From NCBI GenBank assembly GCA_046349675.1, contig JAXMBW010000020.1, positions 2,741-66,740 of the forward strand: DNA of 64,000 nt, read 5' to 3'. The translations under genes and the position numbers were made by a program. The DNA is from Planctomycetaceae bacterium (GTDB taxonomy: Bacteria > Planctomycetota > Planctomycetia > Planctomycetales > Planctomycetaceae). Position 1 is the stretch's first letter. Each line of letters begins with the position of its first letter. Under the pieces are notes generated by a model that saw only the letters and a program-made list of their open reading frames with translations, had not been told where the DNA came from and searched no databases. Shown in pieces: positions 5,601-31,433 of this stretch.

Positions 5601-6758
5601 CGCGGTGGCTTGGTTTCCGGTCAGCGTGCTTTGGCTGATGAGGATCGCGCCGCCCGCCTGAACGAAGATGGCACCGCCGTCAGCATCGGTTCCCGTCGTC
5701 GAATTCCCCGAGAACGTGCTCTGGCTGACGGTGACACTCCCGCCATCGGAGAAGATCGCTCCGCCACTGGCGTTGTTTCCCGTCGTGGAATTCCCCGATA
5801 ACGTACTGCGTGAAACGGTCACCGAACGTTCTGATGCATAGACCGCGCCGCCTTCCGCACGCAGTCCCGACGTACTGTTGCCAGACAACGTGCTGCGATC
5901 GAGCTGGACAGCTCCGAACGAGAAGATCGCTCCTCCGCTCGAATCGTTACCGGCCGTGGAGTTCCCTGACAACGTACTCTGATAGACGTTCACATCGCCG
6001 AAGTTCGAGGCCACAGCTCCACCGCCGGCGTTGATATGGGCCGTCGAGTTCCCGCTCAGCGTTGACAGAGAAAGCGTGATCGAACCGCTGTAGGCGGCGA
6101 TCGCTCCACCGCCTGCATTGCTTCCCGTCGTCCAGTTTCCGGACAACGTCGACTCGCTGACCACCACGGGGCCGAAGTAACTCAGAATGGCACCGCCATC
6201 GGAGTCGGTCCCGGTGGTCGAGCTGGCTGTAATCTGGCTGCGCTCGATCGATAGCGTCCCCGCGGACGTGGAGCGAATGGCACCGCCTCCCTGGCTGTTC
6301 GCAGTCGTTTTTCCACGGGTGAGCGTCAGTGACTCGATGGTCACGTCGCCCGCAGTGATCCCGAAAATGCGGGAGAGATTTTGAGCATCGATGACGGTAT
6401 TCGAGGTCCCGTTCCCGGTGATCCTCAGTGAGTCCGTGATGTTCATCTGCCCCAGGCTGAGGTTGATCGTCCCGTTCAAGCCCGGAGCGAACGAAATGGT
6501 GTCAGCCCCACTCAGCCCATTCGCAGCAAGGACCGCTTCGCGCAGGGTGGTCAGTCCGTCGCCGCTGGTCGTATTGTCAGCCAGACTGTTGACGACGATC
6601 GCCGCCAGCAACGTTCGGTCTTCGAGTGCGTGTCCCCGGCTCAGGACACGTTGAGTCACCCCCGAACATTTCCGAGAACTCCCGAAGAGCGACTTCCAGG
6701 TGGACGTGACTTGCTGTTGCCAAAACCGAGCAATTCGACCACTGATTGAATTGAGCAT
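2694..6758 (-). CDS. giant secreted beta-helix / RTX-type Ca-binding repeat exoprotein (adhesin-like)
   Basis: The ORF is open to ATG 6836 (1380 aa). ATG 6758 (MLNSISGRIARFWQQQ...) is the more plausible start. It has an LEDRTLLAA motif and a TTLREAVLAAN (CSLREA-like) motif. Nine GGA[IV] beta-helix turns occupy aa 183-420. LQNNGGPTATHAL and DQRG..DIGAFE motifs follow. There are many GGxGxD nonapeptides and five 115-aa tandem units. Confidence 0.9.
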   Translation of the reverse strand: MLNSISGRIARFWQQQVTSTWKSLFGSSRKCSGVTQRVLSRGHALEDRTLLAAIVVNSLADNTTSGDGLTTLREAVLAANGLSGADTISFAPGLNGTINLSLGQMNITDSLRITGNGTSNTVIDAQNLSRIFGITAGDVTIESLTLTRGKTTANSQGGGAIRSTSAGTLSIERSQITASSTTGTDSDGGAILSYFGPVVVSESTLSGNWTTGSNAGGGAIAAYSGSITLSLSTLSGNSTAHINAGGGAVASNFGDVNVYQSTLSGNSTAGNDSSGGAIFSFGAVQLDRSTLSGNSTSGLRAEGGAVYASERSVTVSRSTLSGNSTTGNNASGGAIFSDGGSVTVSQSTFSGNSTTGTDADGGAIFVQAGGAILISQSTLTGNQATASVGGAIYGDTSNLTIRNSIVALNTDSGTAPDFMAPTSGTVSVGYSLIGADLGTGLTATVGTTPGANGNFVGTAATPFDPKIGPLQNNGGPTATHALKLDSPALNRGNNAFAVDPTSGNAALLTDQRGVGYSRIATGTVDIGAFESTPLTPGVVSGVLTVTGSGGNDIIRVFSVGGIVKIDDGYSVTDTGILLTSLTRVNLVGLGGNDLLRLDSSLGTTIVGSMQGGDGDDTLVSGRGNDTIDGGSGIDTLSYIQATTAVKVSLATLTAQNTVGAGTDTISGVENLIGSSFNDTLTGDSNANRISGGDGNDTLTGGAGADVLDGGEGNDLLNFDNLDTSVIGGNGTDTATVSGATAGVNLNLTLGQIEKASVGTSSYNNTLNAAGATWAVSLTGSNGNDTLIGGNMNDTLNGGAGNDSLVGNGGNDNLTGGTGADVLDGGEGNDTLNFDNLDTSVLGGNGTDTATVSGATAGVNLNLTLGQIEKASVGTSSYNHILNAAGATWAVSLTGSNGNDTLIGGNMNDTLSGGSGDDSLVGNGGNDNLTGGAGADALDGGEGNDSLYFDNLDTSVVGGNGTDTATVSGATAAVNLNLTLGQIERASVGTSSYNNTLNAAGATWAVSLTGSNGNDTLLGGNMNDTLNGGAGNDSLVGNGGNDSLVGGAGADALDGGEGNDSLIFDNLDTSVVGGNGIDTATVSGATAGVNLNLTIGQIERASVGTSSYNNTLNAAGATWAVSLTGSNGNDTLIGGNMNDTLNGGAGNDSLVGNGGNDSLTGGTGADVLDGGEGNDTLVFDNLDTSVIGGNGTDTANLSGATGAVNLNLTAGQLEKVNASTSTYNNILNATGATWAVSITGGNGNDTISGGDLNDTLSGGSGDDLLTGNGGSDIIIGGAGSDTANYSTAGSVVIVSLVTNKSSGGAGVDTLSQIENLTGSIYNDQLTGNSGNNILRGGGGVDTIVGGGGSDSIIYS
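2889..4613 (-). repeat. five tandem 345-bp (115-aa) coding repeats inside the exoprotein gene
   Basis: Unit starts on the minus strand are 4613, 4268, 3923, 3578 and 3233, each beginning L-x-F-D-N-L-D-T-S-V. Units 1-4 are nearly identical at protein level. Unit 5 is diverged. Confidence 0.9.
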
Positions 6759-7393
6759 CTGGGGGGCAATCCGGAAAACACAGGAGATCAGAGCCATGGG
6801 GGAGAACACCACTGTCGAGAGTGGATCAGGCTCCATGTGACTATGTTTCCTGTTTTCGATTCGTGATCGAATTACTCACCAGCCAGAAAGCCATCCATTC
6901 GTTTTTTCGGGGTACGAAGCCGGTTACGTTGTCCTGGTAAAATGATCGGACGGTGTTTAACGAAACGGTGCGACCCCGATTGCACCAGACATGCACAGTT
7001 TAATGTTCGTAGCAAGGGGGCGGGCTGCATCAGGTAGATCGATGAAGACTGGTAACGATTCACACTCTGAGCCAGATCGAAGTATCGGGAGGGGAGAGCC
7101 GGCCTCATGTGCATGCCGTCCACATGCACACCTCTCTCGCCATTGTTGGCTTCACCAGAACTGCAACCAGCTATCCAAAATAAAAACACGCAAGGGAGCT
7201 GTGGGCCGACGAACTCCCCTGCGTTTGCCAGCAACCAGGCCAGCTTCACAACTTTAGGAGGTGAACGCCTGACGAGAGGGCGAATACCCGCAAACCTCCG
7301 CAATTGCAGCCTAAACCCGCGAACGCTTGCAGCCTCCACCGCAGGCGTCACACTCAATTTGCTGGATCAACACGACGCTTAAGGTGCCCCAAT

Positions 7394-8884
7394 ATGCGGA
7401 TCGCAGTCGGCGGAATCTCTCACGAGACCAGTTCCTTCTCCAAACTTCCGACCCGAGTGGCTGACTTTGAAGCCGGGTTCGGGATCTATCGCGGCCCGGA
7501 GATCTTCAAACGCTTCACCAATACGAATATCTGTACCGGAGGTTTCATCGACGGGGGAAAGAAGCACGGATTCGAGATCGTGCCCCTGTTGTGGGCCTTT
7601 GCGTATCCCGCCGGTCTGATCGTGCGAGAAGATTACGAAGCACTTAAGCAGGAGTTCCTCGACCGGTTGAAGGAAGCAGAAGCGGAGGGTGGCCCCGTCG
7701 ACGGTGTGCTGCTCGATCTGCACGGAGCGATGGTGATCGAGGGAATCGATGATGGTGACGGTGACTTCGTCGAAGCGGTCCGAAAGTACCTTGGCCCCGA
7801 TCGCCCGGTGGTGGTGACTTTCGACCTGCACGGGAATCACACGCAGCGGCGGGTCGATGCCGCCACGGCGATCATCGGTTTCGACACCTATCCGCACGTC
7901 GACATGGCAGAGCGGGGGCGCGAGGCTGCCGACTTGATCGTGCGGACGATTCGACACGAAGTTCAGCCGGTGATGGCTCTGCGTCCGATCCCGATGTTCT
8001 GGGGAACTCCGACACAGGTGACCGCTCATCCTCCAATGAATGAGGTGCTGCAACGGGTTCACGACCTGGAGAAGCGGCCGGGAATTCTCTCGGTCACGAT
8101 CTCGACCGGGTTCCCCTGGGCCGATGTTCCGGATGTGGGAGTCAGCGTCATCGTCGTCGCGGATCGAGATCAGGCTCTGGCGACTGCAACCGCGGAAGAG
8201 CTGGCGTCGTGGGTCTGGGACAATCGTCAACGCTGGTATGCACCACCGACCCGCGTTCGCGATGCGATCCGACAAGGAGAACAGCTGGGCCGCTACCCGA
8301 TCATCCTGGCCGATCAAGCTGACAACACGGGAGGTGGGGCTCCGGGCGACTCGACAGAGATCCTGCGAACGTTCATTGACCTCAATCTGCAGGATGCGGT
8401 GGTGCTCTACATCGTCGATCCCGAGGTCGCCCAGCTGGCCCACCAGGCGGGAGTCGGCCAGCGAATTCAGGTTCAGGTCGGTGGCAAGTCTGATCCGATT
8501 CAGGGTCCGCCGGTCGAGATGAACGCCGAGGTCATGGCGATCTCGCATGGCGACTTCACCTACGACGGGCCGATGTATGCGGGGCTGACCGGCAACATGG
8601 GTTGCTCAGCCTGGCTTCAGCAGGACGGAGTTTCGGTCGTCGTGGTCACTGCGGCTGAGCAACCGTTGGGACCGGCGTTCGCCAAGACACTCGGGATCGA
8701 TTGTCCGGCGATGAAGTACATTGCGGTGAAGTCCTCGGTTCACTTCCGGTCGGGCTTTGAACGGTTCGCGGGCTCGATCACTAACGTCGATGCGGCGGGG
8801 ACACATACTCACGACTTCACCCAGCTGGCCTACAAGAAACGAACTCGCCCGGTGTTCCCGGTGGAGATTCCGCCGCAAAGATAG
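7394..8884 (+). CDS. M81 family metallopeptidase (MlrC-like)
   Basis: MRIAVGGISHETSSFS is the typical MlrC N-terminus. The ORF is open from 7304, but ATG 7394 fits the family start. Confidence 0.8.
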   Translation: MRIAVGGISHETSSFSKLPTRVADFEAGFGIYRGPEIFKRFTNTNICTGGFIDGGKKHGFEIVPLLWAFAYPAGLIVREDYEALKQEFLDRLKEAEAEGGPVDGVLLDLHGAMVIEGIDDGDGDFVEAVRKYLGPDRPVVVTFDLHGNHTQRRVDAATAIIGFDTYPHVDMAERGREAADLIVRTIRHEVQPVMALRPIPMFWGTPTQVTAHPPMNEVLQRVHDLEKRPGILSVTISTGFPWADVPDVGVSVIVVADRDQALATATAEELASWVWDNRQRWYAPPTRVRDAIRQGEQLGRYPIILADQADNTGGGAPGDSTEILRTFIDLNLQDAVVLYIVDPEVAQLAHQAGVGQRIQVQVGGKSDPIQGPPVEMNAEVMAISHGDFTYDGPMYAGLTGNMGCSAWLQQDGVSVVVVTAAEQPLGPAFAKTLGIDCPAMKYIAVKSSVHFRSGFERFAGSITNVDAAGTHTHDFTQLAYKKRTRPVFPVEIPPQR

Positions 8885-8956
8885 TCGGTGACTCGCGTCC
8901 GCCTCGAAGATATAATTTCCGACTGATGCGAAATTCTCTCACCAGTCATTTTGTGG

Positions 8957-10405
8957 ATGAGTTGCTTGTCTGACCTGTCCGTCCCCGTTGACCAACTGCA
9001 AACCCCCTCCGGGCGACGGGCATGGCTGCGTCAGCAGGGGATCGCTGCCCTCGGATGGGGACTCCTGGGACAACAGCTGCGACTGGCAAGTGCCGAGCCG
9101 TCGAAGGCTCCTCGACTCGCCGGGTTCGGGAACGCGAAGTCTGTCCTGATTATCTTTGCCAGTGGCGGCCAGAGTCAGATCGATACCTGGGACCCGAAAC
9201 CCGATGCTCCGCCCGAGATTCGTGGAGCCTTCAATTCCATCGCGACAGCGATCCCGAACGTTCGGTTTTGCGAGCACATGCCGCGGATCGCCCAGATCGC
9301 CGACAAGCTGTGCGTGGTCAGGAGCATGGCCCACGAGGATCTCGACCATGGGTCGTCGTTTCATCTCGCGATGACCGGGCGTTACCACCGCCGACGCAGC
9401 TCCAACGATCCGCCCGACCTCACCGATGCCCCATGCATGGGTGCTGTGTTGCAACGGGTGCAGTTGCCCTCCCGGTTTCCTCAGACAGCTGTGAATTTGA
9501 ATGGGCCTGCCGAGGTGCCGCTCGTGCTCGGACCGGGCCAGTTCGGGGGCTTCCTCGGGAAGAGTTACGACCCGCTCACTCTCGGGGATGTCAGTCGGGG
9601 AGATCTGGCGATTCCGTCCCTGGAGCCGCGACTTGATCTGCCCGTTTCGCGGATGCGGGCTCGTGAGTCGTTGCTGCGGTCGATTGAGCAGTCGATCCCG
9701 GAAAGCCAGCGTGATGTGCTGTGGACCGACAAACAGGCCCGCTACCGCGACGCCTTCGAGATGTTGTCGCAGGAGGACACAGCTCGCGCATTCGAGCTGC
9801 ACCGAGAGGCTCCGGAGCTGAGAGACCGTTACGGGCAGAACCGCTCGGGGCAGGCCTGCCTGCTGGGTCGGCGGCTGGTCGAGGCAGGTGTCCCGCTGGT
9901 GACGGTGATGTGGAATCACAACAACCGGGGGCAGGACATCGACCCGAACAGCAGCGACCTGTACGGCTGGGATAATCACAACGACATCTTTGAGGGCTTG
10001 CAGCATCGTCTGCTGCCGCGCTTTGACCAGAGCTTCTCAGCCTTGATTGAAGATATGGACCAGCGCGGGCTGCTCGATGAGACGCTGGTGATCGGGATGG
10101 GTGAGTTCGGCCGCGCCCCGCTCGTGGCTGTGGAACGAAACTTTGCGGGGATCAGCCCGGGTCGTAAGCACTGGAGCAGCGTCTACTCGATCGTCATGGC
10201 TGGGGCGGGAGTGTCGCGCGGAGCGGTGGTCGGAGCCTCGGATTCGCGCGGGGCTTACCCGCTGACCAACTCGTACGGCCCGTGGGATGTGACAGCTACG
10301 ATCTTCTCCGCTCTGGGCATCGACCCGGCGACCCACTACTTTGACCACTTCAGCCGTCCTTATACGATGAGCGAAGGAAAGGTCATGCAGGCGGTGTACG
10401 CGTGA
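8957..10405 (+). CDS. DUF1501 domain protein (sulfatase-fold, Tat-type leader)
   Basis: It has the GRRAWLRQQGIAALGWGLL twin-arginine leader. IIFASGGQSQIDTWDPKP and MGEFGRAP are typical DUF1501 blocks. The ORF opens at TTG 8951 and the first ATG is at 8957. Confidence 0.8.
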   Translation: MSCLSDLSVPVDQLQTPSGRRAWLRQQGIAALGWGLLGQQLRLASAEPSKAPRLAGFGNAKSVLIIFASGGQSQIDTWDPKPDAPPEIRGAFNSIATAIPNVRFCEHMPRIAQIADKLCVVRSMAHEDLDHGSSFHLAMTGRYHRRRSSNDPPDLTDAPCMGAVLQRVQLPSRFPQTAVNLNGPAEVPLVLGPGQFGGFLGKSYDPLTLGDVSRGDLAIPSLEPRLDLPVSRMRARESLLRSIEQSIPESQRDVLWTDKQARYRDAFEMLSQEDTARAFELHREAPELRDRYGQNRSGQACLLGRRLVEAGVPLVTVMWNHNNRGQDIDPNSSDLYGWDNHNDIFEGLQHRLLPRFDQSFSALIEDMDQRGLLDETLVIGMGEFGRAPLVAVERNFAGISPGRKHWSSVYSIVMAGAGVSRGAVVGASDSRGAYPLTNSYGPWDVTATIFSALGIDPATHYFDHFSRPYTMSEGKVMQAVYA

Positions 10406-10601: not shown

Positions 10602-12726
10602 CTACCCCAACCGACCGAACTGGCGGTCGAGTTCGTTCTTTGACAGCTTCAGCGAGGTCGGGCGGCCGTGGGGGCAGTGGTGGTGGTCGTCGCAGAGGTG
10701 ACGCTGTTCGAGCAGTGAGGCGATCTCTTCGGGGGAGAGACGCTGTCCCGCTTTAATCGCAGCCTTGCACGACATCATGTGCAGGAGGCTGTCGAGCAGG
10801 TCGCGGCGGGTGATCTTTTCGTCCTGGGAATCGATCTTGTCAATCACCGACTTGAGCAGATCGGCGGGGTCAGCCCGGCGGATCAGCGTGGGGATGCCGC
10901 TCAAGGCCACCGTGTTGCCACCGAACTCCTGGACCAGCAATCCCAACTCGGCCAGCAGCTCGGTGTTGTCGAGAGCGATCGAGACCTCGCGGGGAGTCAG
11001 CTCGACGGGGATCGGGACGAGCAACCGCTGAACCTCAGCTGTCTTGTTCAGAATCCGTTCGCGCAGCTGCTCGTACATGATGCGTTCATGCAGTGCGTGC
11101 TGGTCGATAATGTGGACGCCATCGGGGGTCTCAACGACCAGATAGCAGTCGTGGACCTGCATCGCCCGCACATCCCCAGCTGCGCTGGTGGAGGGCAGTT
11201 CGGTGGCTTTGGCGGTGGCTGTGAGAGTCGGCGCTGGAAGAGATGAGAGAACCCGGCTGGCGATGGCTCGGGACCACCGGGGAATGGGCGGAACGTCGAC
11301 TCGACTCCAGGCAGAATCGGATCGCGAGGCTTTGTGGGGCGAGGGACTGGCAGGCGGAGTGGATGACCGCTCCAGAACGTGGTTCACATCGCGGGAGATA
11401 TCGATCGAGGGAAACTCGGGCTCGGGTTCGCCCGAGTCCTCGGAGAACGGGAATGGGAGTCCGCCCGCAGGGCAAAGTTCGACTCGCGCGGGCGCAGGGC
11501 GGCCCTCCGCGGGTCTCCAGTCGGCCAGCTGGGACTGGGCCCAGTTCGACAGCTCTTCCTCGACCACCAGCTGGGGCGGGGGAGCGACAGCTGAGGTCGA
11601 CTCCTGCTCGTCGAAGTGCAGATCGTGAACCGGAGCCTGTTCGAGAGTGCTGCCGAGCGTCCCCCTTCTTCCCACCGCTCGGGATGAGCCGGTCGGTATT
11701 GAGGACTCCGCCGAGGTCCATGCCCAAAAACTTCGACCGGATCGCGGAGAGGATCAACCGGAAGAGTGCGCTGCTGTCGAGGAACCGCACCTCGCTCTTC
11801 GTCGGGTGGACGTTCACATCGAAGGACTCGGGCGAGGCCTCCAGAAACAAGAACGCGACCGGTTGCCGACCAACCATCAACAGCCCACGGTAAGCCTCGT
11901 TGACAGCATGCTGCAGCGACCGGTCCTGAATCCAGCGACCATTGAGAAACAGGTACTGATGCTTGCGAGTGGTGCGCGATTGTTTCGGATGCCCGACGAA
12001 GCCCCACACGCGATTGCCATCGCGATGCATCTCAATCGGGATCAGGTCTTTCGCCAGCTCACCTCCGTAGAACAGCTCCAGCCGTTCGAGCAGCCGCTGC
12101 GTGGCGGGCAGTTCGTAGACGGTGCGGTCGTTGTGCTTGAGGGCGAGGTGCAGGTTGGGGTTCGCCAAGGCGATGCGGGTGAACTGTTCGGAGATATGGC
12201 CGAACTCAGTCGAAGGGTTCTTAAGGAACTTGCGGCGGACGGGGGTCGTGTAGAACAGCTCACGGACCTCGATCGAGGTACCGACCGGACAGCCGCAGGG
12301 GACGACAGGTTGAGCCTCGCCGCCGTCGACGACCAGCTCCGAGCCGAGGTCGGAATCGGGTTGGCGGGAGCGGATTCGCAGCTTCGAGATTTCGGCGATC
12401 GAGGCGAGAGCTTCGCCGCGAAAACCCATCGACCGGACGTGGAACAGGTCGTCAGCACTCCGCAGCTTGCTGGTCGCGTGCGGGGCGATTGCCAGTGGCA
12501 GGTCGTCGGGATGGATTCCTTCGCCGTCGTCGACGATACGGATCAGGTCAGCTCCGCCGCGCTGGATCTCGATTTCGATGTGCGTGGCCAAGGCATCGAT
12601 CGAGTTTTCCAGCAGCTCCTTGATGACACTCGCCGGACGCTCGATCACCTCTCCAGCTGCGATCTTATTGATCACGCTGTCGGAAAGCTGTTGGATTCGG
12701 GGGGCCTGATCCGTGGTGGCCGACAT
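10602..12726 (-). pseudogene. mutL: DNA mismatch repair endonuclease MutL, interrupted by a 1-nt frameshift in the linker
   Basis: The N-terminal frame (ATG 12726) carries [27 protein letters not shown]. The C-terminal frame (ending at 10602) carries DQHALHERIMYE, SCKAAIKAG and CPHGRPT. The two frames differ by one nt and swap at the G5 run (C5 on plus strand, 11661-11665). Confidence 0.85.
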
Positions 12727-12977
12727 GGCATCCGTTCCGCGAATGGGGGTGAGTGAGAGCCGTGGAAAGTGTACTCGTGAGGGGGGCAAAGGGGGAGAGT
12801 GCTCCCGGGTCACACGTTCGGGCCATCTGCCCGGGGGTGCGGGCCGAATTTCGGGTCGCGGGGGGCAGCTGCGGCCCGAAACCCAGGAAAAACCGGCGAG
12901 AATCGCCAGCTTGGGCCCGGTTTCAAGAACTCACTTGGCAGAGATCGCCTCCCCGCATAAACTTCGGTTTCACAGCC

Positions 12978-21882: not shown

Positions 21883-24800
21883 ATGCCAATCCATTGCGCA
21901 ATTCGACAACGTCGCCACCCGATCGGGTGGGTGTTCGTTGCTTGCGCGCTGCTGAGTCTTGTTTTCCCGCTTTCAGTAATCGGTCTCGCTCAGAGTCCGA
22001 AATCGCCCGCCATGGGATCGGCCGGAATGACTGGCGGCATGGTCCCGTCCAGTTCCTCCAACGCCAATTCTTCGGGGAATGCCGGGACCACTGGTACCAA
22101 CGAGCCGGCGCCCAAACGGGAACCGAACACTCCGGCCCCACCCGCTACGAACCCCGACGCCAAGAATCCGCCGGCAACCACGAACCGCCCCGCCTCTCGA
22201 CCAGGCGTACGCGAAAGTTCGCCGCTCGCTCCGGGTCCCCGCCTCATCGATGACGAGGGAATTCCGCCGTTCCACCTGGCCAGGCTGTCGCTGGATGGCG
22301 AGGTCTCCAATGACCGGGCGATCATCACAGCTCAGATCGATGTCGACGTGAACAGCGATGGGGAAGACGAGGGCCTGACCCGTTACCACGACGTTCCGCT
22401 ACGTCTGACTCAGGCCCACATTCTGTCCAAAGAGTATGTCGGTCCCGGGCAGGAAGGTCCGGTAGTGGATCGCCCCGTCGAAGATGGAATCGTCTGGCGG
22501 TTTACGGGCTACGGTACACACCAGCTGAAACTCAAAATGTGGGTTCCCATCCGGCAGTCACCCGCCGGGCGACAGTTGGTCTTGTCGCTGCCGACGATGC
22601 CACCGGGGTTTGATGCCCAAGTCAACCTGGCCATTCCTGGCTCTCCGATCGTGATTCGCTCGAATGGGGACCTGAGCGTCCTGTCGAATACTCACGCGGA
22701 GAATCTCAATCGCGTCTCCGCCGATGTGCGGGGCCCCCGCCTCGATATGACGTGGAGTGAACCTCCCGAGGTGCAGAACTCATTCCTGGAATCCCGAACC
22801 TCAGTCACCCTCCGACGCGATGGCGATCGGGTCATTGCCACCGCCGAGCAGGTCCTCTTCCCGGAGAACGTGGGGGTTAAAGAGGCCGAAATCAAACTGC
22901 CCGATGGGTTCGAGCTGGACGAACTGTCCGGCTCGCTGGTCAAGGGACACGAAGCGATCCCCGGGCGCAATGGCTGGCGGAAGATCAGCTTCCGCGAAAG
23001 CAGCGGGGAACGCATCGACTTGAACTGGGTGCTCTCCGCTCCGTTCCCCGTCGAGGGTGGCAAGCTCTCGATCGATGGGTGGGTGGTCTCCGACGCTCGC
23101 AGCCAGGCAGGTCGTATTCGCCTGCAGGACTTCCCCGGGTACCAGATGGTCCCTCGGCTCAGCCAGTTTGTCCGTCGGGCCACACCGAACTCGCCCCAAA
23201 CGCTGGAATCGTTCGAGTTCACCAAACAGCCGTTCCAAATTTCCTGGGACGTGCAGCGGGTGGCCTCCAAATTCTCCGCACGGCCGCACCACCTGCTGTT
23301 CATTGGAACCAGTCAGATGGTGCTCGAATCACGTTTCCGGATTCAGACCGATACCGGATCGATCGAGCAGATCGACCTCGGATGGAACACCGGTAAGGAC
23401 GAAGGGTGGCGACTCGACCCGGCCTCGGTCTCGGGGGATGTGGTCATTCCGCCCCTGGGTGATCAACTCAACCAAACCGGTCGACTCCTTGTTGGCTGGA
23501 CCACTCCGAAGTCGGGTTTGATCGATCTCAACCTGCGTTTCTTCCGTCCGATGCCATCGGGAGTGCAGTCAGCCAGCGTGAGCCTCCCTCGAATTCGCGG
23601 GGCGCGCTCCCTTTCCGCCGACTTGCTGGTTGCCGCCGAGGATCAGTATGAAGTCACGCTGACCGGTGCCAAGGGAGCCGCACTGCAGACCTCGGTCTCA
23701 GACCCCGCCCGATTGGAAGGCGTCGCCCCTGCTCTGGTCAGCCAGATCCAGAGGGCAGTCACTCTCGATCCCGACCAGGACCAGATTGAGCTGAGCTGGA
23801 ACGCCCGGGCCCGAGTCGTCGAAGCAGACGCCGAAGTCGAACTTCGCCGCGCGACCGACGGCCGAGTTCATGTTCAGCAGACGGTTCGATTCCAGTCCCG
23901 TTTTGGTCGATTGTCGTCGGTGCGGTTCCAGCTGCCAAAGTCGCTTCTGGCGTTGATTCCCGCAGGGGCAGCCAGCTCCGCGATCGGAGTCACGATCGAT
24001 GGCCAGTCGATGAAACCTCAGATCCACGACAGTGCGATAGAGACCTCTCTGAGCGAGCCGCGACTGGGCGAGATTCTCGTCACGCTCGAATACTCGCTTC
24101 CGGTCTCGACCAGTACGCCCAATTCGACCGTCGTCCCGGTACTCATGTCACTCGACACCAAGTACTCATCAATCCGCGTCCGCATCCCCGAGGGTGAAAC
24201 CCTCCGCGTCCCGCCCACAGCTGAGGGATGGCAACCGGTGCCGACCTCGCCCGACGCGACGGTTTGGGTCACTTCATCGGCGAACCAGGTGCCTGTCATT
24301 CTCGATGCCGACCAGACGACCTCGCCGCGTTTCAGCGTGGACCGCGCGTTCTACCGGACGCGTTTTGATAGTGCCGGTCGCGTGGAGGGAGTTTGCGAAC
24401 TTCACTGGAACTGGTCGGGCGATGTCCGGGGCCTGCCAATCACGTTGCCCCCGGAGAGTGAATACCTGGGCGCGATGTACAACGGCAAGAGCCTCGACGA
24501 CACCCAGGTGTTCATCGATCCGCGAAACCCCTCACAGATCCAGTTCCGCCTGCCCGCTTCGCAAGACGGATCGCGTCTGGCGGTGGCCTACCGATCGACG
24601 AAACCGGCGTCATTCTCCAATCGCGACCTGCGGACTGTACCGCTTCCGGTCCTCCCGAAGGATGTTTCCGTGGTGCGTTCGACCTGGGAACTCGAACTCC
24701 CCTCGGGCCGCCACCTCTTCATGAGCCCAGCGGCCCTCACTTCCGAGAACCAGTGGCAGCGCCGTGGTGTCCTCTGGTCGCGGACACCCACCGCGAACTA

Positions 24801-25386
24801 TGTCGCTGATCGCAATGCAGCCACAACAGAGACACGTCAACTCTTGTCTCTGTTGCAGACATCGCTCCCCGACGCGAGCCAGGTCTACGCATTCAGCAGC
24901 ATCGGTCCCATTGAGTCTCCTCGATTCCAGTCGATGTCGCGTTCGCTCGTTGTACTGGTGGGGGCGGGAATGACGCTGGCGTTGGGATTCTTGTTCTGGA
25001 ACCTGCCAATCGTCCGCAACATCCAGGCCATGTTGCTACTGGCGTTCGGGGTCAGCATCCTGAGCCTTTGGTTCCTGGAGCCGATTCAGCTGTTGTTACA
25101 GTCTGCGGTACTCGGAGCAGTTCTGGCATTGCTGGCGACCCTGATTGATGTGAAGTCGCGGCGCCCCGTGCTGAGGACATACCCTTCCACCGTCCTGCCG
25201 ATGCCGACATCCCTGCCTGGTACGCACACTGCCGGACAACCGGGGGCTGCTCCGTCTTCGCCGAATTCACCACCTGCCGAACCTGCAGCGGGACGGGGAA
25301 GTTCCGTCTCCCGCCAGCGATCTCATCCCATGACCCCGACTGCCATCTATCAACCGGGTCATTCCGAGGTGGGAAGCCCTCCATGA
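21883..25386 (+). CDS. giant membrane-anchored hypothetical protein (1167 aa)
   Basis: It has an N-terminal hydrophobic anchor (IGWVFVACALLSLVFPLSVIGLA) and an S/N/T/P low-complexity linker. A region of about 880 aa follows with no motif I recognise. Three C-terminal hydrophobic helices lie at nt 24943-25150, followed by a Pro-rich tail. Confidence 0.8.
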   Translation: MPIHCAIRQRRHPIGWVFVACALLSLVFPLSVIGLAQSPKSPAMGSAGMTGGMVPSSSSNANSSGNAGTTGTNEPAPKREPNTPAPPATNPDAKNPPATTNRPASRPGVRESSPLAPGPRLIDDEGIPPFHLARLSLDGEVSNDRAIITAQIDVDVNSDGEDEGLTRYHDVPLRLTQAHILSKEYVGPGQEGPVVDRPVEDGIVWRFTGYGTHQLKLKMWVPIRQSPAGRQLVLSLPTMPPGFDAQVNLAIPGSPIVIRSNGDLSVLSNTHAENLNRVSADVRGPRLDMTWSEPPEVQNSFLESRTSVTLRRDGDRVIATAEQVLFPENVGVKEAEIKLPDGFELDELSGSLVKGHEAIPGRNGWRKISFRESSGERIDLNWVLSAPFPVEGGKLSIDGWVVSDARSQAGRIRLQDFPGYQMVPRLSQFVRRATPNSPQTLESFEFTKQPFQISWDVQRVASKFSARPHHLLFIGTSQMVLESRFRIQTDTGSIEQIDLGWNTGKDEGWRLDPASVSGDVVIPPLGDQLNQTGRLLVGWTTPKSGLIDLNLRFFRPMPSGVQSASVSLPRIRGARSLSADLLVAAEDQYEVTLTGAKGAALQTSVSDPARLEGVAPALVSQIQRAVTLDPDQDQIELSWNARARVVEADAEVELRRATDGRVHVQQTVRFQSRFGRLSSVRFQLPKSLLALIPAGAASSAIGVTIDGQSMKPQIHDSAIETSLSEPRLGEILVTLEYSLPVSTSTPNSTVVPVLMSLDTKYSSIRVRIPEGETLRVPPTAEGWQPVPTSPDATVWVTSSANQVPVILDADQTTSPRFSVDRAFYRTRFDSAGRVEGVCELHWNWSGDVRGLPITLPPESEYLGAMYNGKSLDDTQVFIDPRNPSQIQFRLPASQDGSRLAVAYRSTKPASFSNRDLRTVPLPVLPKDVSVVRSTWELELPSGRHLFMSPAALTSENQWQRRGVLWSRTPTANYVADRNAATTETRQLLSLLQTSLPDASQVYAFSSIGPIESPRFQSMSRSLVVLVGAGMTLALGFLFWNLPIVRNIQAMLLLAFGVSILSLWFLEPIQLLLQSAVLGAVLALLATLIDVKSRRPVLRTYPSTVLPMPTSLPGTHTAGQPGAAPSSPNSPPAEPAAGRGSSVSRQRSHPMTPTAIYQPGHSEVGSPP

Positions 25387-28300
25387 CCAGCACTCGCTCG
25401 TACAGACTCGGGCGAACGCGTTGGCTGTGCTTGCTCGTGGGATTCGCCGGGCTCTGGTTATCCGCTCTGGGACTCACGGCGGCGGAACCTTCGATCCGTC
25501 TGAAGAAGATCGAACCGCCCGCCCGCTGGAATGCCCCCGAGAACATCGATCGATGGATCCGGACCACGGATGCGGACTGGCAGCGTTTCAAACATGCGTT
25601 GAGCCATGTCGGCGACAAGTCTCCGCCCCCCGGCCCAGTGGTCGTCGACGCGGTCTATCGCGCCACCTTCGATGGAACATCGCTCACTCAAGGCACGCTC
25701 GACTGGAAGGTCGACCGCATCGGCTCCACAGCTGGGTTCGTCTCATTGGGGAAAAGCTCACTCGCGGTCTCTCAACTGAACTGGCAAAACCGCGAGGCGG
25801 TTCATGGCGTTACTGCCACCGGCGAGTGGATGTTGTGGTGCGAATCCGATGAGAATCAACTGAGCGGACACTGGTCGCATCGCGGCGAGAGTAAGCTCGA
25901 CACCGTCGTTTTTCAGATGGCGCTGCCGCGTGCGCTTTCCTCGCACCTGGAGATTGCCGTCCCCGATGGATGGCGGGCCCATGTTCAGGGAACCATCGGC
26001 CCGGAAACTCCTGGCGAATTTTCCAGCGAGAAGAAGGCCTGGACATTCGAACTCGGACGTCAGCAGAAATTCCAGCTGACGCTGTCCAAACCCACCTCCA
26101 GCGACACGCCGCAAATCCTCTTGAAGGAAAGCACCGTCTATGGTCTGAACAATACAGACGACTTGATCCGGTTGCAGACCGACCTGGAGTGTACCGTCTC
26201 GGGGGCGAAGGACGCGGAACTGGTGCTGAATGTTCCCAAGCCGCTGCGCGTGCTGAATGTCCTGCTGGGGACCGAACTCCCGCTCACCTTCGTGCGAGAA
26301 CTCGGTGGCGAGGAAGACCGCATCAAAATCCCACTGCGATCACTCACTCCGGGCGAGCGAATCACTCTACGCATTCTGGGCGAGGCAACCCGCCGCTCCG
26401 ACCGCCCCTTCAGCTTGCCACGTCTGCGACCGGTCAATGCGTTGTACCAGGAAGGGAACATCCGTCTGGCTGTTTTCCGTCCGCTCGAAGTGCGTTCGGT
26501 CGAGGTCGTGGGGCTGCGACAAACCCAGCTGACCGAAGAAGAGGGTCAGGAGATCCGAGCCTACGAAGTGCTGTCCAATGCCTGCACCCTTTCGTTGCAG
26601 GTGGGTGAACCGACGGCCCTTCTGCAGGGCGAGATCCTTTTCATCGCGGATGTCCGAGGAGAGTCGCCGACCAGCCGGGTCCGTATGCGACTGTCGACCC
26701 GCGAAGGGGAGCTCTTTTCGCCACGCATGCAGATCCCCGAGGGATGGGACCTCATTACCGTCGACATGGCGGAGACCTCCGACATCGTCCCGACGGCGTG
26801 GCAGGTGACGCAAAGCCCGACCGGCGACAACCAACTCGACATCGAGCTGCGACAACCGATCCGCCCCGATCGAGACTGTACCCTGTTACTTGAGTTCAAA
26901 TCGGTGGCCCTCAAGCCCGGTGCAGCGCGACGCCTGCCGATCCCGCGACTGATCGATCCACAGACCAGTTATGTCCGAGGAGTCGTCTGGGACAACGCCC
27001 CCTGGGAGCTCGACGAATCCTCGACGGGTTCCGTCGAACTCGATGGAAACCCGGCGGATGAAGATCTGATTCAGTCGGTGAAATGGACACGTAGCGAGGA
27101 TTCGAGAGCGATCCCGACCGGAATCCGAATCACGGGGTATAACTCGCAAGTCAAAACACTGTTTCGCGCTGAGCGAACCACTTCGGCAGACCCCGCCCAA
27201 TCTGCAGGCAGTGGCGAAGTCGCGGCCGGGCCCTCGTTATTGTGTGCCAATCTGGAACTCGAAACACGGACATCGCGCGTGGGAAAGTCCCACCCGCATC
27301 GCGCACTGTTTCAGTTCACCCGTCCCACCACGCCGGGCGAGTTTCGACTGACGCTCCCCTCCGAAGGCGAACTCGCCCGCATCATTGCCGACGAGCGAGA
27401 GATCTCGTTCGTCCGACGAAGTTCCGAGATCATCCTCGACCCCGCCAGCAAGCCGTTTACGGAGTTGGTCCTGGAGTATCGAACCACCGCTTCGCCCGGC
27501 TGGATTGTGTCGCGGGATGAAGTCGTCTTCCCCCAGCTGAGTTGTTTCGTCACCGAGTTCGCGTGGCACCTCGTTCTCGATCCAGAGCGGATGCTCTATC
27601 GACTGCCATTCACAGCTGCGGTCAGCCCGCGCGAGATGCCGCAGACCTGGGAGCGATTGCTGGGACCGCTGGCCCGCCATGCGGGCGAGACCGTGTTCAA
27701 CCCGTTCTCGCGGAAGGACTGGAGCGCGCTGATCAACGGGACCACCCGAGAGGGATCGAAGACGCCGCCGCAGGACGCCTGGTTCGTCGCGTCTCACACG
27801 CCCGAACGAATCACGATGAAGACATGGAAACTCGACGTGTCTCATGGACTGGCGTGGTGTTCGTTCCTCGGATTCCTGGCAGGTGGTATCGCCTTGCGAC
27901 GCGCCCGGCGATCCTGGTTTCGTCGCAGCTGGATTTATCTGGGAGGCCTGTGGCTGGTCATCGCGGTCTTTGTTGCCGAGCCTTATGCCCCGATTGCGGG
28001 TGGAGCGTTTCTGGGGACCATTCTGGCCATCATTGTTCCGCGGCGGTTCGCAATCGGCAGCGACCTGCTGGACTCGCCCCAGCAAAGCAACCCCTCGAAA
28101 TATGGGTCGACAGCCATCATCACCGGATGCCTGCTCGCCGTGGGAGCCCACCAGTTCAGCACGGCCAGCCTCGGGCAGGAAGAGATCGAAAGCCCCGAAC
28201 TGGCCTACTTTGAAATCGAAGACCAGGGGCAAACCTTTGTCGTCTTTGACTCTGCGTTTCGCTCTCAATGGGCAGCCTGGCGGGAAGAGGAATCGGGCCC

Positions 28301-31300
28301 ATCCTGGCTGTTGAAGTCGAGCCGCTATGACGTCCAGTCCGAGGTCTCGGGACCGCCACGAATCACAGCCACATACCAGGTGACTGTCTTCGGAGATGTC
28401 GTGCCAACGCTGCTCAAACTTCCATTGAGCGGTGTCTCGCTGGATCAGGTCGAGGGGTTGATCGATGGCCAGACTGTTCGTCTGATCCCCGCTGCCGACC
28501 GACTCGGATTTCTGCTTCCGGTGAACAGCGACAGAGGCGACAAGCTGCCGGCCCCGCCCCCCGCAGCCCGTCCAACCACGGGCCCTCGCCCCGTGACGAA
28601 CCGAACCATCGTCCTCAAGTTCCGCCCTCTCCCCGAGGCCCTCAATGACGACCAAAGCCGGTTCTCGGCTTCGATTCCTCCGCTCCCCGAATCCACCGTC
28701 GTATTCCAATCGGGCCGTTGGCGACTCGGTAGCGACTCGTCCGACACATCCACATCGGGGAACTCAGCATCACCTCGCACGGTTGAACTCGGACCAGCGA
28801 GCCAGCTGAATCTGCAGACAGGCCCCCCCTCTCTCTTGCCGGTCGACAATGTCTCGGACGTACAGCTTCGGACACTGATTGAATGCGGCCCCTTGGGCGC
28901 GAAGCTACAAATTGCAGCCCTCCCCGTCATGACGGATTCGCTTTCGCCAGCAGAGGTCACGCTGGTTCTTCCCTCCGGCATCTTCATTCAATCGCTGTCC
29001 GGTCCGTCGCTCGACCAGTCCAAAGTCAACTACTCCGCCAAGGACACGCGAGTCACTCTACGTCTGCGGCCTTCACGATTCGAGGATGCAATCCCAGTCG
29101 TGATCAGTGCATTTATGCCCATCCGCGAGCAGGGATTTCAGTTTCTACCGCCACGTTGGAAGCCTCACCGCGGCAATCCAACGTCCACGACGGAACCTGA
29201 TTCAGAATTCACGCCCGACTCCCGATTGGAGAAGTCGTTTGTCGGAGTGGTCGCCAAACCCGGGTTCCGAATCACCGATACCTCGAACCGACTCACGATC
29301 GTCCCCGTGTCTCCCCAGGCATTCTCCGACTCCCTGTTCACGAGTCTCGACTGGCAGACGCCCGATCTCGCCTGGACCTGCCGGGATGCAAATGGCCCGT
29401 CCTGGACGATCGACGCGACTCCCAGTGTCAGCCGAGGCTCCCTGGTGCAGACGATCACTCTCAAGGTGCCGCAATCCGACTGGCGGTTGGAGGCGGGAAT
29501 CACCACAGCTCAGGGTGTTCCCTTCGAGCATGTCTTCAAAATCGATCGTCGGATCGACATTCATCGGGCCACGGTTCAGCAGGATGGTGCCGATCGCCTC
29601 CTGCACTGGACACGAATTGGCGACGAGTTGCGACTCAGCATTCGCGACGGCCAGCCCGGAACACAAACAGTCGTCATCGACGGATCGATCGCTCAGGGCG
29701 GTGGCGCATGGGAGCCCCCCGCCTGTGATTATCTATCGGGGCAGACGATCGAATCTTCGGTCATTGTGCGTAACTCGTCGCGCGTGACATCGACCCTCCG
29801 CTGGGCAGACTCGACGACCCGCCTGCGTCCCAACCTCGAGCAGTCGGACGAAGAGGTCCGCTATCGACCCGGAACGCCGACGGCTCCGTTGAACATCCGT
29901 GTCGAACCCGTGGCGGAAGAACGCTCCGCGCGAGTCTGGGTGGATCTGGTGCCGCAACGGGACCGTCCCTGGCAGGTCACACTCCGGCTTCAGTTAAAAG
30001 ACAACCTGCCCTTCGCGACCTCCGTGCGAATTATCTGGGACCAGCCGGGACTCACCGATTTGCACATGATGAATTCGCGAGAGATCGCGTCCGGCAAGGG
30101 ACTCACCTGGCGACCACAAACGCTCGCTTCCAAGCCCGCTGAACTGACCCTCTCAGCTGCCATTGATGAAAACACTGTTCGCAGCCAGCCGATCCGCCTG
30201 CCACAGTTTTCGGGGATCGCCTGTTCAGAGATCTGGGTCTCGCTGCCGCGAGGTTCGGGATATCGCCCCATTCGATCGAGCTCTTCGCTTCTTCCGGCCG
30301 CTCCCACGAACTGGCCCGCGATATGGACCGAGAACCTGACCAACGCTCGGGAGGATTTGTATGCCTGTTCCAATCAGGAGCTGACGATCGAAGCCACCTC
30401 CAGCGAACCAATCGTGCGTCCCGTCCGGGCGGAAACGCTGATCTGGATGGACGGAGGAATCGACCCCGCCTCGGATGGATGCACGGGGATCACGAAGTAC
30501 CTGATGATCGCCGAGCGGGAGACCTCGCTCGAGATTCCCAAAGAGGTCCGAACCTTTATCCGAGCCATTGCAGTCGACGGACATACGCAACCCGTCGAGT
30601 CGCACATCCGCATCCCCTCTCGCACCAATGACCTGTCCCACGAGATCGTTGTCTGGTGGCAATCCGAGGGGCCACCACCCGAAACCATGTCCCGCGATCT
30701 GATCCGCCTGCCGGGCTCAATCCCATTCCCTCACTGGATCGGCGTCGTGCCCCCCCACCAGCAAGTTCTGCTCGACCTGTGGGGCAACCGAACCTCCCTG
30801 CTCAGCGAGTTCTGGCTCGATCGGGCCGAGTCGATCCTGAAGGCCGCCGGAGAATTTCAGGGAGCCCCCTGGTCAGTCGACGGTCCTCTGCTCCACCAGT
30901 TGGCTGACAGCCGGGACGAGTTAAGCCGGGTGACCGAGTTGTCGAAAGAAGAACATAGCCGGAACGAAGTCATCAACTTTAAGTGGAATGCTTTCTCTCA
31001 AACCGGGAGCAGCATTACCGCGCCCCCCGTTCGTGACACCGGGGAGACTCACTTTTCCGGGCTCGATGCGATTCTGGCCCTCTGTGGTGAATCGCGTTCG
31101 CTCTGGCTCAGCTCCGACAAGTATCCCTACAGCGGTCCACGCCTGCTCGATCGACACTGGGCGATCACGATCACTGCAGCTCTGGCCTCGCTGGTGTCTC
31201 TGCTGTTGCTGACATGGATTGTCAGTATTTTCCGGCGACTCGATGTCGCCGAAAAGTTGGCGGCACATCCATACTCGGCGATGGTGGGGCTGGGAATCGT

Positions 31301-31433
31301 CTGGTGGATCTTCTTTTCTCCGAGTGTGCTGGGACTGGTCTTTGCCCTGTCGGGGATCGCGATGGGAGCCCGCGATCGCATTCTGGCCGCACGCGCCCAA
31401 GCCGCCGCAGCTGCGGCCAATAGCCCCGCCTGA
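25383..31433 (+). CDS. giant multi-pass hypothetical protein (2016 aa)
   Basis: ATGA overlaps the upstream stop. It has an N-terminal signal/anchor (WLCLLVGFAGLWLSALGLTAA). A mid-protein cluster of three TM helices lies at nt 27846-28040, followed by a second signal-like segment. A C-terminal cluster of three TM helices lies at nt 31155-31370. I recognised no known motif. Confidence 0.8.
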   Translation: MTSTRSYRLGRTRWLCLLVGFAGLWLSALGLTAAEPSIRLKKIEPPARWNAPENIDRWIRTTDADWQRFKHALSHVGDKSPPPGPVVVDAVYRATFDGTSLTQGTLDWKVDRIGSTAGFVSLGKSSLAVSQLNWQNREAVHGVTATGEWMLWCESDENQLSGHWSHRGESKLDTVVFQMALPRALSSHLEIAVPDGWRAHVQGTIGPETPGEFSSEKKAWTFELGRQQKFQLTLSKPTSSDTPQILLKESTVYGLNNTDDLIRLQTDLECTVSGAKDAELVLNVPKPLRVLNVLLGTELPLTFVRELGGEEDRIKIPLRSLTPGERITLRILGEATRRSDRPFSLPRLRPVNALYQEGNIRLAVFRPLEVRSVEVVGLRQTQLTEEEGQEIRAYEVLSNACTLSLQVGEPTALLQGEILFIADVRGESPTSRVRMRLSTREGELFSPRMQIPEGWDLITVDMAETSDIVPTAWQVTQSPTGDNQLDIELRQPIRPDRDCTLLLEFKSVALKPGAARRLPIPRLIDPQTSYVRGVVWDNAPWELDESSTGSVELDGNPADEDLIQSVKWTRSEDSRAIPTGIRITGYNSQVKTLFRAERTTSADPAQSAGSGEVAAGPSLLCANLELETRTSRVGKSHPHRALFQFTRPTTPGEFRLTLPSEGELARIIADEREISFVRRSSEIILDPASKPFTELVLEYRTTASPGWIVSRDEVVFPQLSCFVTEFAWHLVLDPERMLYRLPFTAAVSPREMPQTWERLLGPLARHAGETVFNPFSRKDWSALINGTTREGSKTPPQDAWFVASHTPERITMKTWKLDVSHGLAWCSFLGFLAGGIALRRARRSWFRRSWIYLGGLWLVIAVFVAEPYAPIAGGAFLGTILAIIVPRRFAIGSDLLDSPQQSNPSKYGSTAIITGCLLAVGAHQFSTASLGQEEIESPELAYFEIEDQGQTFVVFDSAFRSQWAAWREEESGPSWLLKSSRYDVQSEVSGPPRITATYQVTVFGDVVPTLLKLPLSGVSLDQVEGLIDGQTVRLIPAADRLGFLLPVNSDRGDKLPAPPPAARPTTGPRPVTNRTIVLKFRPLPEALNDDQSRFSASIPPLPESTVVFQSGRWRLGSDSSDTSTSGNSASPRTVELGPASQLNLQTGPPSLLPVDNVSDVQLRTLIECGPLGAKLQIAALPVMTDSLSPAEVTLVLPSGIFIQSLSGPSLDQSKVNYSAKDTRVTLRLRPSRFEDAIPVVISAFMPIREQGFQFLPPRWKPHRGNPTSTTEPDSEFTPDSRLEKSFVGVVAKPGFRITDTSNRLTIVPVSPQAFSDSLFTSLDWQTPDLAWTCRDANGPSWTIDATPSVSRGSLVQTITLKVPQSDWRLEAGITTAQGVPFEHVFKIDRRIDIHRATVQQDGADRLLHWTRIGDELRLSIRDGQPGTQTVVIDGSIAQGGGAWEPPACDYLSGQTIESSVIVRNSSRVTSTLRWADSTTRLRPNLEQSDEEVRYRPGTPTAPLNIRVEPVAEERSARVWVDLVPQRDRPWQVTLRLQLKDNLPFATSVRIIWDQPGLTDLHMMNSREIASGKGLTWRPQTLASKPAELTLSAAIDENTVRSQPIRLPQFSGIACSEIWVSLPRGSGYRPIRSSSSLLPAAPTNWPAIWTENLTNAREDLYACSNQELTIEATSSEPIVRPVRAETLIWMDGGIDPASDGCTGITKYLMIAERETSLEIPKEVRTFIRAIAVDGHTQPVESHIRIPSRTNDLSHEIVVWWQSEGPPPETMSRDLIRLPGSIPFPHWIGVVPPHQQVLLDLWGNRTSLLSEFWLDRAESILKAAGEFQGAPWSVDGPLLHQLADSRDELSRVTELSKEEHSRNEVINFKWNAFSQTGSSITAPPVRDTGETHFSGLDAILALCGESRSLWLSSDKYPYSGPRLLDRHWAITITAALASLVSLLLLTWIVSIFRRLDVAEKLAAHPYSAMVGLGIVWWIFFSPSVLGLVFALSGIAMGARDRILAARAQAAAAAANSPA

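Follow-up and report, generated by a model that had tools for sequence, protein, structure and literature searches.

Analysis of a 64,000-nucleotide stretch of a metagenome-assembled Planctomycetaceae bacterium genome (contig JAXMBW010000020.1 of assembly GCA_046349675.1; hereafter the window) identified two adjacent plus-strand genes that profile comparison resolves into three paralogous modules. Gene A (positions 21883-25386) is an open reading frame (ORF) of 1,167 amino acids (aa) with an ATG start and encodes a single-module subunit, while gene B (25383-31433), an ORF of 2,016 aa that also starts with ATG, encodes a two-module subunit (B1 and B2). The common plan of the modules is an export signal, an array of approximately five beta-sandwich domains (~170 residues each), and a bundle of three membrane helices. 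A and B belong to no family or system described so far, and the novelty is that of a family, not of a demonstrated function. With a probability of roughly 0.45, we propose that A and B form a stoichiometric periplasmic scaffold complex, anchored in the cytoplasmic membrane, with an essential envelope role in the Planctomycetaceae. Our confidence is high for the anatomy of the two proteins and low for the specific role.

Two real ORFs are present where an earlier note, made from the sequence alone, had placed them. The stop codon of A and the start codon of B share the ATGA at 25383-25386, and the coupling junction (25366-25386, +), read directly from the sequence, consists of GAGGTGGGA, positioned 9 to 17 nucleotides (nt) 5′ of the B start codon, followed by this stop/start overlap. 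The G+C content is even (~0.61) throughout the region. Measured against the relative in locus L005 (86 to 92% identical), A has a ratio of nonsynonymous to synonymous substitution rates (dN/dS) of 0.051 and B one of 0.077. Strong purifying selection acts on both genes, and uninterrupted ORFs as long as these are not a chance product. The NCBI gene call for A (U0929_19620, 1,119 aa) begins 48 codons 3′ of the first ATG and omits 21883-22026, and with it the signal peptide; homologue alignments cover the longer form. A promoter scan found no plus-strand promoter-like site in the scanned region, and terminator-like sites, including those within the A/B operon, were no commoner than in shuffled sequence.

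Far from being two separate novelties, A and B are paralogues of each other according to deep profile-profile comparison. With module limits set at B residues 1-900 for B1 and 901-2016 for B2, hhalign with deep alignments matched A to B1 (probability 98.9%, E-value 1e-17; A 224-1083 with B 169-883), A to B2 (99.4%, 3e-21; A 126-911 with B2 72-868), and B1 to B2 (98.6%, 8e-16; B1 37-538 with B2 38-566), while reversed-profile controls gave P values of at least 0.04. The A-B1 alignment spans the membrane bundle, including a juxtamembrane strand pair and the Glu-Pro turn between helices 2 and 3. The paralogy emerged with deep alignments alone: hhalign with shallow alignments reached an E-value of only 0.006, and BLASTP comparisons of A with B and of B1 with B2 were not significant. 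On this profile evidence, A, B1, and B2 are paralogous modules.

Protein A begins with a predicted Sec-type signal peptide (aa 1-37, 21883-21993, +) that has a basic n-region, a hydrophobic core (segment 12-39; helix 14-27 in the AlphaFold2 [AF2] model), and the ending ...GLA/QS, and the "AQ" following the core is retained in the deep family consensus. It continues into a Pro/Ser/Thr/Asn/Ala-rich segment (aa 38-125, 21994-22257, +) of low occupancy and conservation, predicted to be a disordered, membrane-distal tip; the predicted local distance difference test (pLDDT) score of the AF2 model lies below 50 for residues 1-125. The following region (aa 126-1019, 22258-24939, +) is modeled as all beta with pLDDT mostly of 80 to 90 and comprises approximately five tandem beta-sandwich domains of ~170 aa each, with approximate limits at 126-296, 297-419, 462-642, 643-812, and 813-1019. 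Internal repeats are detectable here, since residues 297-740 align to 459-906 (E-value 1e-10) at an offset of ~165 residues. Hydropathy and the AF2 model place a three-helix membrane bundle at aa 1020-1092 (24940-25158, +); it contains a QPA motif as well as a conserved W-x-x-E-P turn. Conservation in the family peaks in this bundle (top-residue frequency, 0.55), the distal domain D1 ranking next to the membrane bundles, and residues G1027, Q1073, and G1078 are invariant. A predicted disordered cytoplasmic tail (aa 1093-1167, 25159-25383, +; pLDDT below 50) closes the protein; the KSRR after the last helix agrees with the positive-inside rule, and the conserved short motif at the C terminus is present in the near family. 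Across the deep A family, most invariant positions are occupied by Gly, Pro, or Trp, and they form no catalytic constellation.

Protein B repeats this layout twice. A predicted signal peptide (aa 1-34, 25383-25484, +; hydrophobic segment 13-34) precedes the B1 ectodomain (aa 35-820, 25485-27842, +), which is homologous to the A ectodomain in the hhalign comparison. A central three-helix membrane bundle (aa 821-888, 27843-28046, +), recognized by hydropathy and by its alignment to the bundle of A, carries the same E-P turn (FLEP in B and VAEP in A); the alignment has high confidence, and this bundle is the most conserved part of B. Behind it lies a short basic linker, predicted to be cytoplasmic, and a hydrophobic segment of ~12 residues, AIITGCLLAVGA (aa 889-932 in all, 28047-28178, +). 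This fourth hydrophobic segment occupies aa ~914-926 (28122-28160) and is followed by HQFSTASLGQ; the same 3 + 1 arrangement, with the fourth segment 20 to 30 residues past the bundle, occurs in all distant B-like proteins checked. The AIITGCLLAVGA segment may act as an internal signal or anchor that re-exports B2, and the HQFSTASLGQ after it resembles a signal-peptide cleavage site, so B may be processed into two polypeptides. The B2 ectodomain (aa 933-1790, 28179-30752, +) comprises approximately five predicted beta-sandwich domains (all beta over B2 residues 42-890 in the AF2 model, and matched by hhalign). Its model differs from that of A by an extra juxtamembrane helical region (aa 1791-1921, 30753-31145, +; helices at B2 906-925, 935-949, 955-973, and 994-1000), after which a C-terminal membrane bundle and a short tail complete the protein (aa 1922-2016, 31146-31433, +; hydrophobic segments 1925-1953 and 1965-1996, AF2 helices at B2 1024-1112).

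An N-terminal hydrophobic helix and a C-terminal hydrophobic cluster are therefore present in both proteins as first noticed, and the bulk of each is still predicted to lie outside the cytoplasmic membrane. The topology drawn from these two features had missed the second three-helix cluster in the middle of B (aa ~821-888) and the short segment after it (~914-926). The description of the proteins as tethered at both ends is too simple, as the N-terminal helices look cleavable and B consists of two A-like modules fused via the central membrane cluster. By the positive-inside rule, the short basic loops and tails would be cytoplasmic and all three beta arrays periplasmic, and the fusion of B1 to B2, together with the translational coupling of A to B, points to a 1:1:1 assembly. 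We thus envisage that Sec-exported A and a B that threads the membrane twice would supply three homologous three-helix bundles, which would pack into a common base of 9 to 10 helices in this stoichiometry. Three legs of approximately five beta-sandwich domains each would project from this base into the periplasm. Module fusion, coupling, and highly conserved membrane helices fit such obligate co-assembly. Because neither a conserved catalytic set nor an enzyme domain was found, a non-enzymatic scaffold role appears the most likely, in which the complex would serve as a tether or spacer between envelope layers or as an assembly platform in the wide planctomycete periplasm.

The label of ORFans that had been attached to the two proteins is wrong, given that the family of A comprises 1,946 or more clusters (50% identity). 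Word-indexed homologue searches returned 32 A-like and 29 B-like clusters, with identities ranging from 100% to 31% for A and from 91% to 22% for B, and a third such search with a diverse profile recovered the near family only. An exhaustive hidden Markov model search of public data (representative clusters at 50% identity) with an A profile found 1,946 clusters at E-values of ≤1e-3 and 613 at ≤1e-30; since A, B1, and B2 are related, the weaker end of this list may hold B-like proteins. The best 150 clusters are nearly all full length (~1,100 aa), and full-length A homologues were found in hundreds of lineages. All named members belong to the Planctomycetaceae and all are hypothetical proteins; those from cultured organisms are encoded by Planctomyces sp. 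SH-PL14 (WP_075094446.1), Planctomicrobium piriforme (WP_092047718.1), and Maioricimonas rarisocia (Mal4_09360), and others come from freshwater, glacier-stream, and marine metagenome-assembled genomes.

This large family lies outside the reference databases searched. Pfam (cutoff E-value ≤1) gave no match to A or B above noise and none of significance, and the hits of the A membrane bundle to DUF5693 (E-value 0.33) and SemiSWEET (2.4) were dismissed as chance-level matches of hydrophobic helices. Pfam scans of 22 B-family members and 8 distant A-family members found no domain, NCBIfam and PADLOC scans of A and B returned nothing, and sequence searches of the PDB with single sequences and two family profiles gave no match. 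The statement that no named family matches either protein thus holds in Pfam, NCBIfam, PADLOC, and the PDB sequences, and no profile match covering both proteins was found. As the literature search also found no description of the family, the pair still stands as a promising candidate for an envelope component not yet described.

An A-like gene followed directly by a B-like gene was present in 23 of the 24 loci examined (the window, L001 to L015, L018 to L023, and one JGI contig), with B-like partners of 1,917 to 2,278 aa, so that the pair co-occurs and is syntenic across many genomes. The 4-nt overlap recurs in L001, L003, L004, L019, L023, and the JGI contig, while a gap of 4 to 8 nt separates the genes in L018, L020 (P. 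piriforme), and L021 (a TARA marine contig); the junction takes one of these two forms in all loci but one. The close coupling that had been read from the window is in this way borne out in most relatives. In L004 (6709-10004), which comes from a distant relative, two overlapping ORFs of 797 and 305 aa, each colinear with A, make up a split A-like gene, and a B-like gene of 2,221 aa follows.

Around the pair, an inositol-monophosphatase (IMPase) family gene lies directly upstream in L018 (9018-9803), L019 (8873-9649), L020 (8990-9751), and Planctopirus limnophila, and a convergent BacA/UppP gene lies downstream in L019 (20228-21076), L023 (17443-18306), the JGI contig, and P. limnophila; neither gene occurs in the window. 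This adjacency may reflect inherited gene order or a functional link. The flanking genes vary among lineages, which identifies the two-gene A/B operon as the conserved unit, and the genes of the Tad pilus, TgpA/DUF58/MoxR, and DUF1598 lie beside it in particular lineages only, for which reason they were excluded as components of the system. A second large protein without a Pfam domain is encoded divergently upstream of the IMPase-A-B block in L018 (4680-8822, −; 1,380 aa) and L020 (4265-8716, −; 1,483 aa), and the two copies are 44% identical. That the locus is strain specific, decaying, or mis-called and without function could be argued from its lack of annotation alone. Full-length homologues in hundreds of lineages, conserved synteny, and dN/dS values of 0.05 to 0.08 refute this explanation, whose probability we regard as negligible.

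An essential role is suggested by TraDIS (transposon-directed insertion-site sequencing) data of P. limnophila, taken from the published supplementary tables (PMC10632474). The gene order in this species runs from type II secretion F, F, and E genes (Plim_1813-1815) through a hypothetical gene (Plim_1816), CpaB (Plim_1817), TadE (Plim_1818), a peptidase A24 gene (Plim_1819), and an inositol monophosphatase gene (Plim_1820) to two hypothetical genes (Plim_1821 and Plim_1822) and BacA (Plim_1823) (PMC10632474). Locus L019 shares this same order of eleven genes around its A-like (1,127 aa) and B-like (2,278 aa) genes. Based on the 11-gene synteny, the gene lengths, and the lack of annotation, Plim_1821 and Plim_1822 (the latter of 7,071 nt and 2,356 aa [PMC10632474]) are likely the orthologues of A and B. 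Plim_1821, with an insertion index of 0.0093, was scored essential, and Plim_1822, with 0.0256, was scored "essential#" (domain-essential); of their neighbors the IMPase gene Plim_1820 is essential and BacA Plim_1823 is non-essential (PMC10632474). Among the sites listed, approximately 11 insertions fall in the first 5.2 kb of Plim_1822, and a dense run begins at 2,378,479 of CP001744.1, in which the gene spans 2,373,000 to 2,380,070. As the index implies 181 insertions, the remainder must fall in the last 1.6 kb, and the implied density at this 3′ end is close to the 0.08 to 0.14 of flanking non-essential genes. If the two genes are A and B, laboratory growth requires A, B1, and the greater part of B2, while the last ~530 residues of B, including the C-terminal bundle, would be dispensable. 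It is the essentiality of the syntenic Plim_1821 and the domain essentiality of Plim_1822 that lead us to regard the scaffold role as one needed for growth.

AF2 models of A and B2 (mean pLDDT, 71) are all beta for ~900 residues, with helical membrane bundles after, and Foldseek searches of the PDB with both models gave the same neighbors: Ost1/RPN1, integrin alpha legs, ITIH1 (VIT), and the N-domains of LTA4H, ERAP, and IRAP. In these comparisons the neighbors are stalks or accessory beta-sandwich domains, and the resemblance is at the level of the fold only, with low global TM-scores. The earlier statement that the proteins have no Ig-like signature stands at the sequence level and fails at the fold level, where a string of beta-sandwich domains is predicted.

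The best match to A is Ost1/ribophorin I (E-value 5e-9, probability 1.0), which is also among the top matches of B2. The Ost1 matches (PDB 7oci_A, 6ezn_A, and 6s7t_E) have E-values of 5e-9 to 1e-7 at TM-scores of 0.33 per target and 0.14 per query and a root mean square deviation (rmsd) of 18 Å. Like Ost1/RPN1, A and B appear to combine a signal peptide, tandem non-cytoplasmic beta-sandwich domains, and a subsequent membrane anchor, and like Ost1 they carry no catalytic residues. Unlike Ost1, their modules have approximately five domains instead of two and a three-helix bundle instead of a single helix, occur as three paralogues in a bacterial host, and have no known STT3-type partner. Kinship at the sequence level was rejected: a profile of yeast Ost1 (PDB 6c26_1) and human RPN1 compared with A, B1, and B2 gave hhalign P values of at least 0.087, the same as reversed controls, with the limited sensitivity of a two-sequence profile, and Ribophorin_I (PF04597) is absent from the Pfam matches of A, B, the 22 B-family members, and the 8 distant A-family members.

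The Ost1 match raises the alternative that A and B are ribophorin I-like, non-catalytic substrate holders in an undecaprenyl-linked glycan pathway (glycosylation or envelope polymer assembly), in which the beta-sandwich legs would hold the nascent substrate beside a membrane enzyme encoded elsewhere. The rank of Ost1 in the Foldseek results of A and B2 is consistent with this, as is BacA/UppP, an undecaprenyl-diphosphate phosphatase, directly downstream of the pair in L019, L023, the JGI contig, and P. limnophila. However, the low TM-scores and the lack of any sequence or profile relation to Ost1/RPN1 speak against it, and BacA is convergent, non-essential in P. limnophila, and absent from the window. 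In addition, no STT3/PglB-like or other glycosyltransferase gene was found in any of the locus neighborhoods read. We consider this explanation unlikely.

The integrin alpha legs (thigh, calf-1, and calf-2 followed by a transmembrane helix; E-values 2e-7 to 3e-8, TM-scores ~0.1) resemble A and B as membrane-anchored stalks of consecutive beta-sandwich domains, those of integrin being part of a heteromeric ectodomain. Unlike integrin alpha, A and B lack an FG-GAP beta-propeller head and an I-domain, and they show no relation to it in sequence (no Pfam match). The M1 aminopeptidase N-domains (LTA4H, ERAP, and IRAP) and the ITIH1 VIT domain superpose locally (probability 1.0, rmsd of 5 to 9 Å over 200 to 240 columns). 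The aminopeptidase likeness concerns only the fold of a single non-catalytic N-terminal domain of ~200 residues, and unlike these proteins, A and B have no peptidase or vWA domain, no zinc motif, and no Peptidase_M1 Pfam match (HEXXH-E).

The suggestion that A and B are adhesins or S-layer-like proteins at the cell surface, outside the cell, draws on their giant repetitive beta-sandwich build and Pro/Ser/Thr-rich tip and on the folds of biofilm-associated protein and pilus adhesins, which are among the weaker hits of Foldseek. A giant adhesin of the RTX, Ig/cadherin, or vWA type was rejected, as neither protein has a HemolysinCabind, Big, Cadherin, or VWA match. More generally, the central and C-terminal multi-helix bundles with their positive-inside flanks place the anchor in the cytoplasmic membrane, and the Pfam and NCBIfam scans found no outer-membrane anchor, sorting signal, RTX, or T1SS/T5SS/T9SS feature. 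Single-copy genes with dN/dS of 0.05 to 0.08 that are essential in culture are also unlike adhesins, and a surface location is highly improbable.

BatD-type aerotolerance proteins, which accompany MoxR/DUF58/vWA genes, have a signal peptide, a beta-rich ectodomain, and a C-terminal anchor, and this general layout resembles that of A and B. Membership in an aerotolerance operon was nevertheless rejected, since no BatD (PF13584) or vWA match was found in A, B, or their relatives. MoxR/DUF58 genes are not among the conserved neighbors, lying near the pair in L020 only and on the opposite strand; in P. limnophila they are non-essential, whereas the counterparts of the pair are essential (PMC10632474).

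The conservation pattern of the bundles gives rise to a further alternative, in which the three bundles would form a channel or an energy-coupled translocator and the legs a conduit for lipids, lipoproteins, or polymers across the wide periplasm. The bundles are the most conserved parts of the proteins and keep polar or charged residues (R1045, E1066, and Q1073), and essentiality would suit a role in outer-membrane biogenesis. Periplasm-spanning lipid transporters (MCE/LetB, AsmA/TamB/YhdP, and Lpt) were rejected as relatives because no Pfam or NCBIfam profile of this kind matched and none appeared in the Foldseek top 50 of either model. The alternative itself is weakened by the same results, namely the lack of an ATPase, MCE, AsmA/TamB, or LptC/A-like signature, and further by the lack of a conserved transporter partner adjoining the pair and by the apparent dispensability of the B2 C-terminal bundle in P. 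limnophila. We hold it to be rather improbable.

Several observations also weigh against the scaffold complex. Strong conservation of the membrane helices, including the polar E, Q, and R positions, would fit transport as well, and the relative arrangement of the domains in the AF2 models is unreliable (predicted TM-score, 0.35 to 0.37). We know of no outer-membrane or peptidoglycan partner of either protein. In Planctomyces sp. SH-PL14 (L017, 10001-14552), the A-like gene has no B-like gene within 10 kb and is followed by a rhomboid protease gene; the B partner may lie elsewhere in this genome or be absent. Plim_1821 and Plim_1822 are equated with A and B on the grounds of their synteny, their length, and the absence of annotation, and the authors of the TraDIS study caution that a low insertion density can reflect transposase-inaccessible DNA (PMC10632474). 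The last point is countered by the insertion density, which is normal in the flanking genes and at the 3′ end of Plim_1822.

Growth and division of planctomycetes proceed without FtsZ, and P. limnophila has an unusually large periplasm and can dispense with most of its genes for peptidoglycan synthesis. To our knowledge, the proteins behind these division and periplasm traits are largely unknown. A and B represent a large, undescribed, lineage-specific family of distinctive three-module architecture, for which the data of a model planctomycete suggest essentiality. In the TraDIS study, 108 proteins that are essential, specific to the phylum, and of unknown function are listed but not analyzed (PMC10632474). 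If the equation with the P. limnophila genes is true, two of these 108 gain an anatomy and a topology, in which three paralogous legs would rise into the periplasm from a conserved base in the membrane. A family of approximately 2,000 sequence clusters outside every domain database is also now defined. For a genetically tractable species, predictions follow on the stoichiometry, the internal signal, the dispensable C-terminal module, and the conserved membrane motifs. A bolder interpretation, which we regard as possible and rather doubtful, is that A and B are an unrecognized essential envelope machine peculiar to the Planctomycetaceae, either a tether of membrane, wall, and outer membrane that sets the periplasm or a part of FtsZ-independent growth and budding, and that an ancient kinship with ribophorin I is real. 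These prospects are tempered by the place of A and B among about a hundred unexplained essential planctomycete proteins.

Elsewhere in the window, the other giant gene (2694-6836, −) encodes a 1,380-aa RTX protein with 12 HemolysinCabind stretches. The mutL gene is apparently split (10602-12813, −) into an ORF with the N-terminal ATPase and DNA_mis_repair domains (11131-12813) and a MutL_C ORF (10602-11675); the two overlap by 545 nt in different frames, which could be due to a frameshift, a pseudogene, or an assembly error. Upstream of the pair and unrelated to it are genes for a DUF1501 protein (8951-10405, +) and an M81/MlrC-type metallopeptidase (7304-8884, +), and the DUF1501 family also occurs in several of the other planctomycete loci examined.

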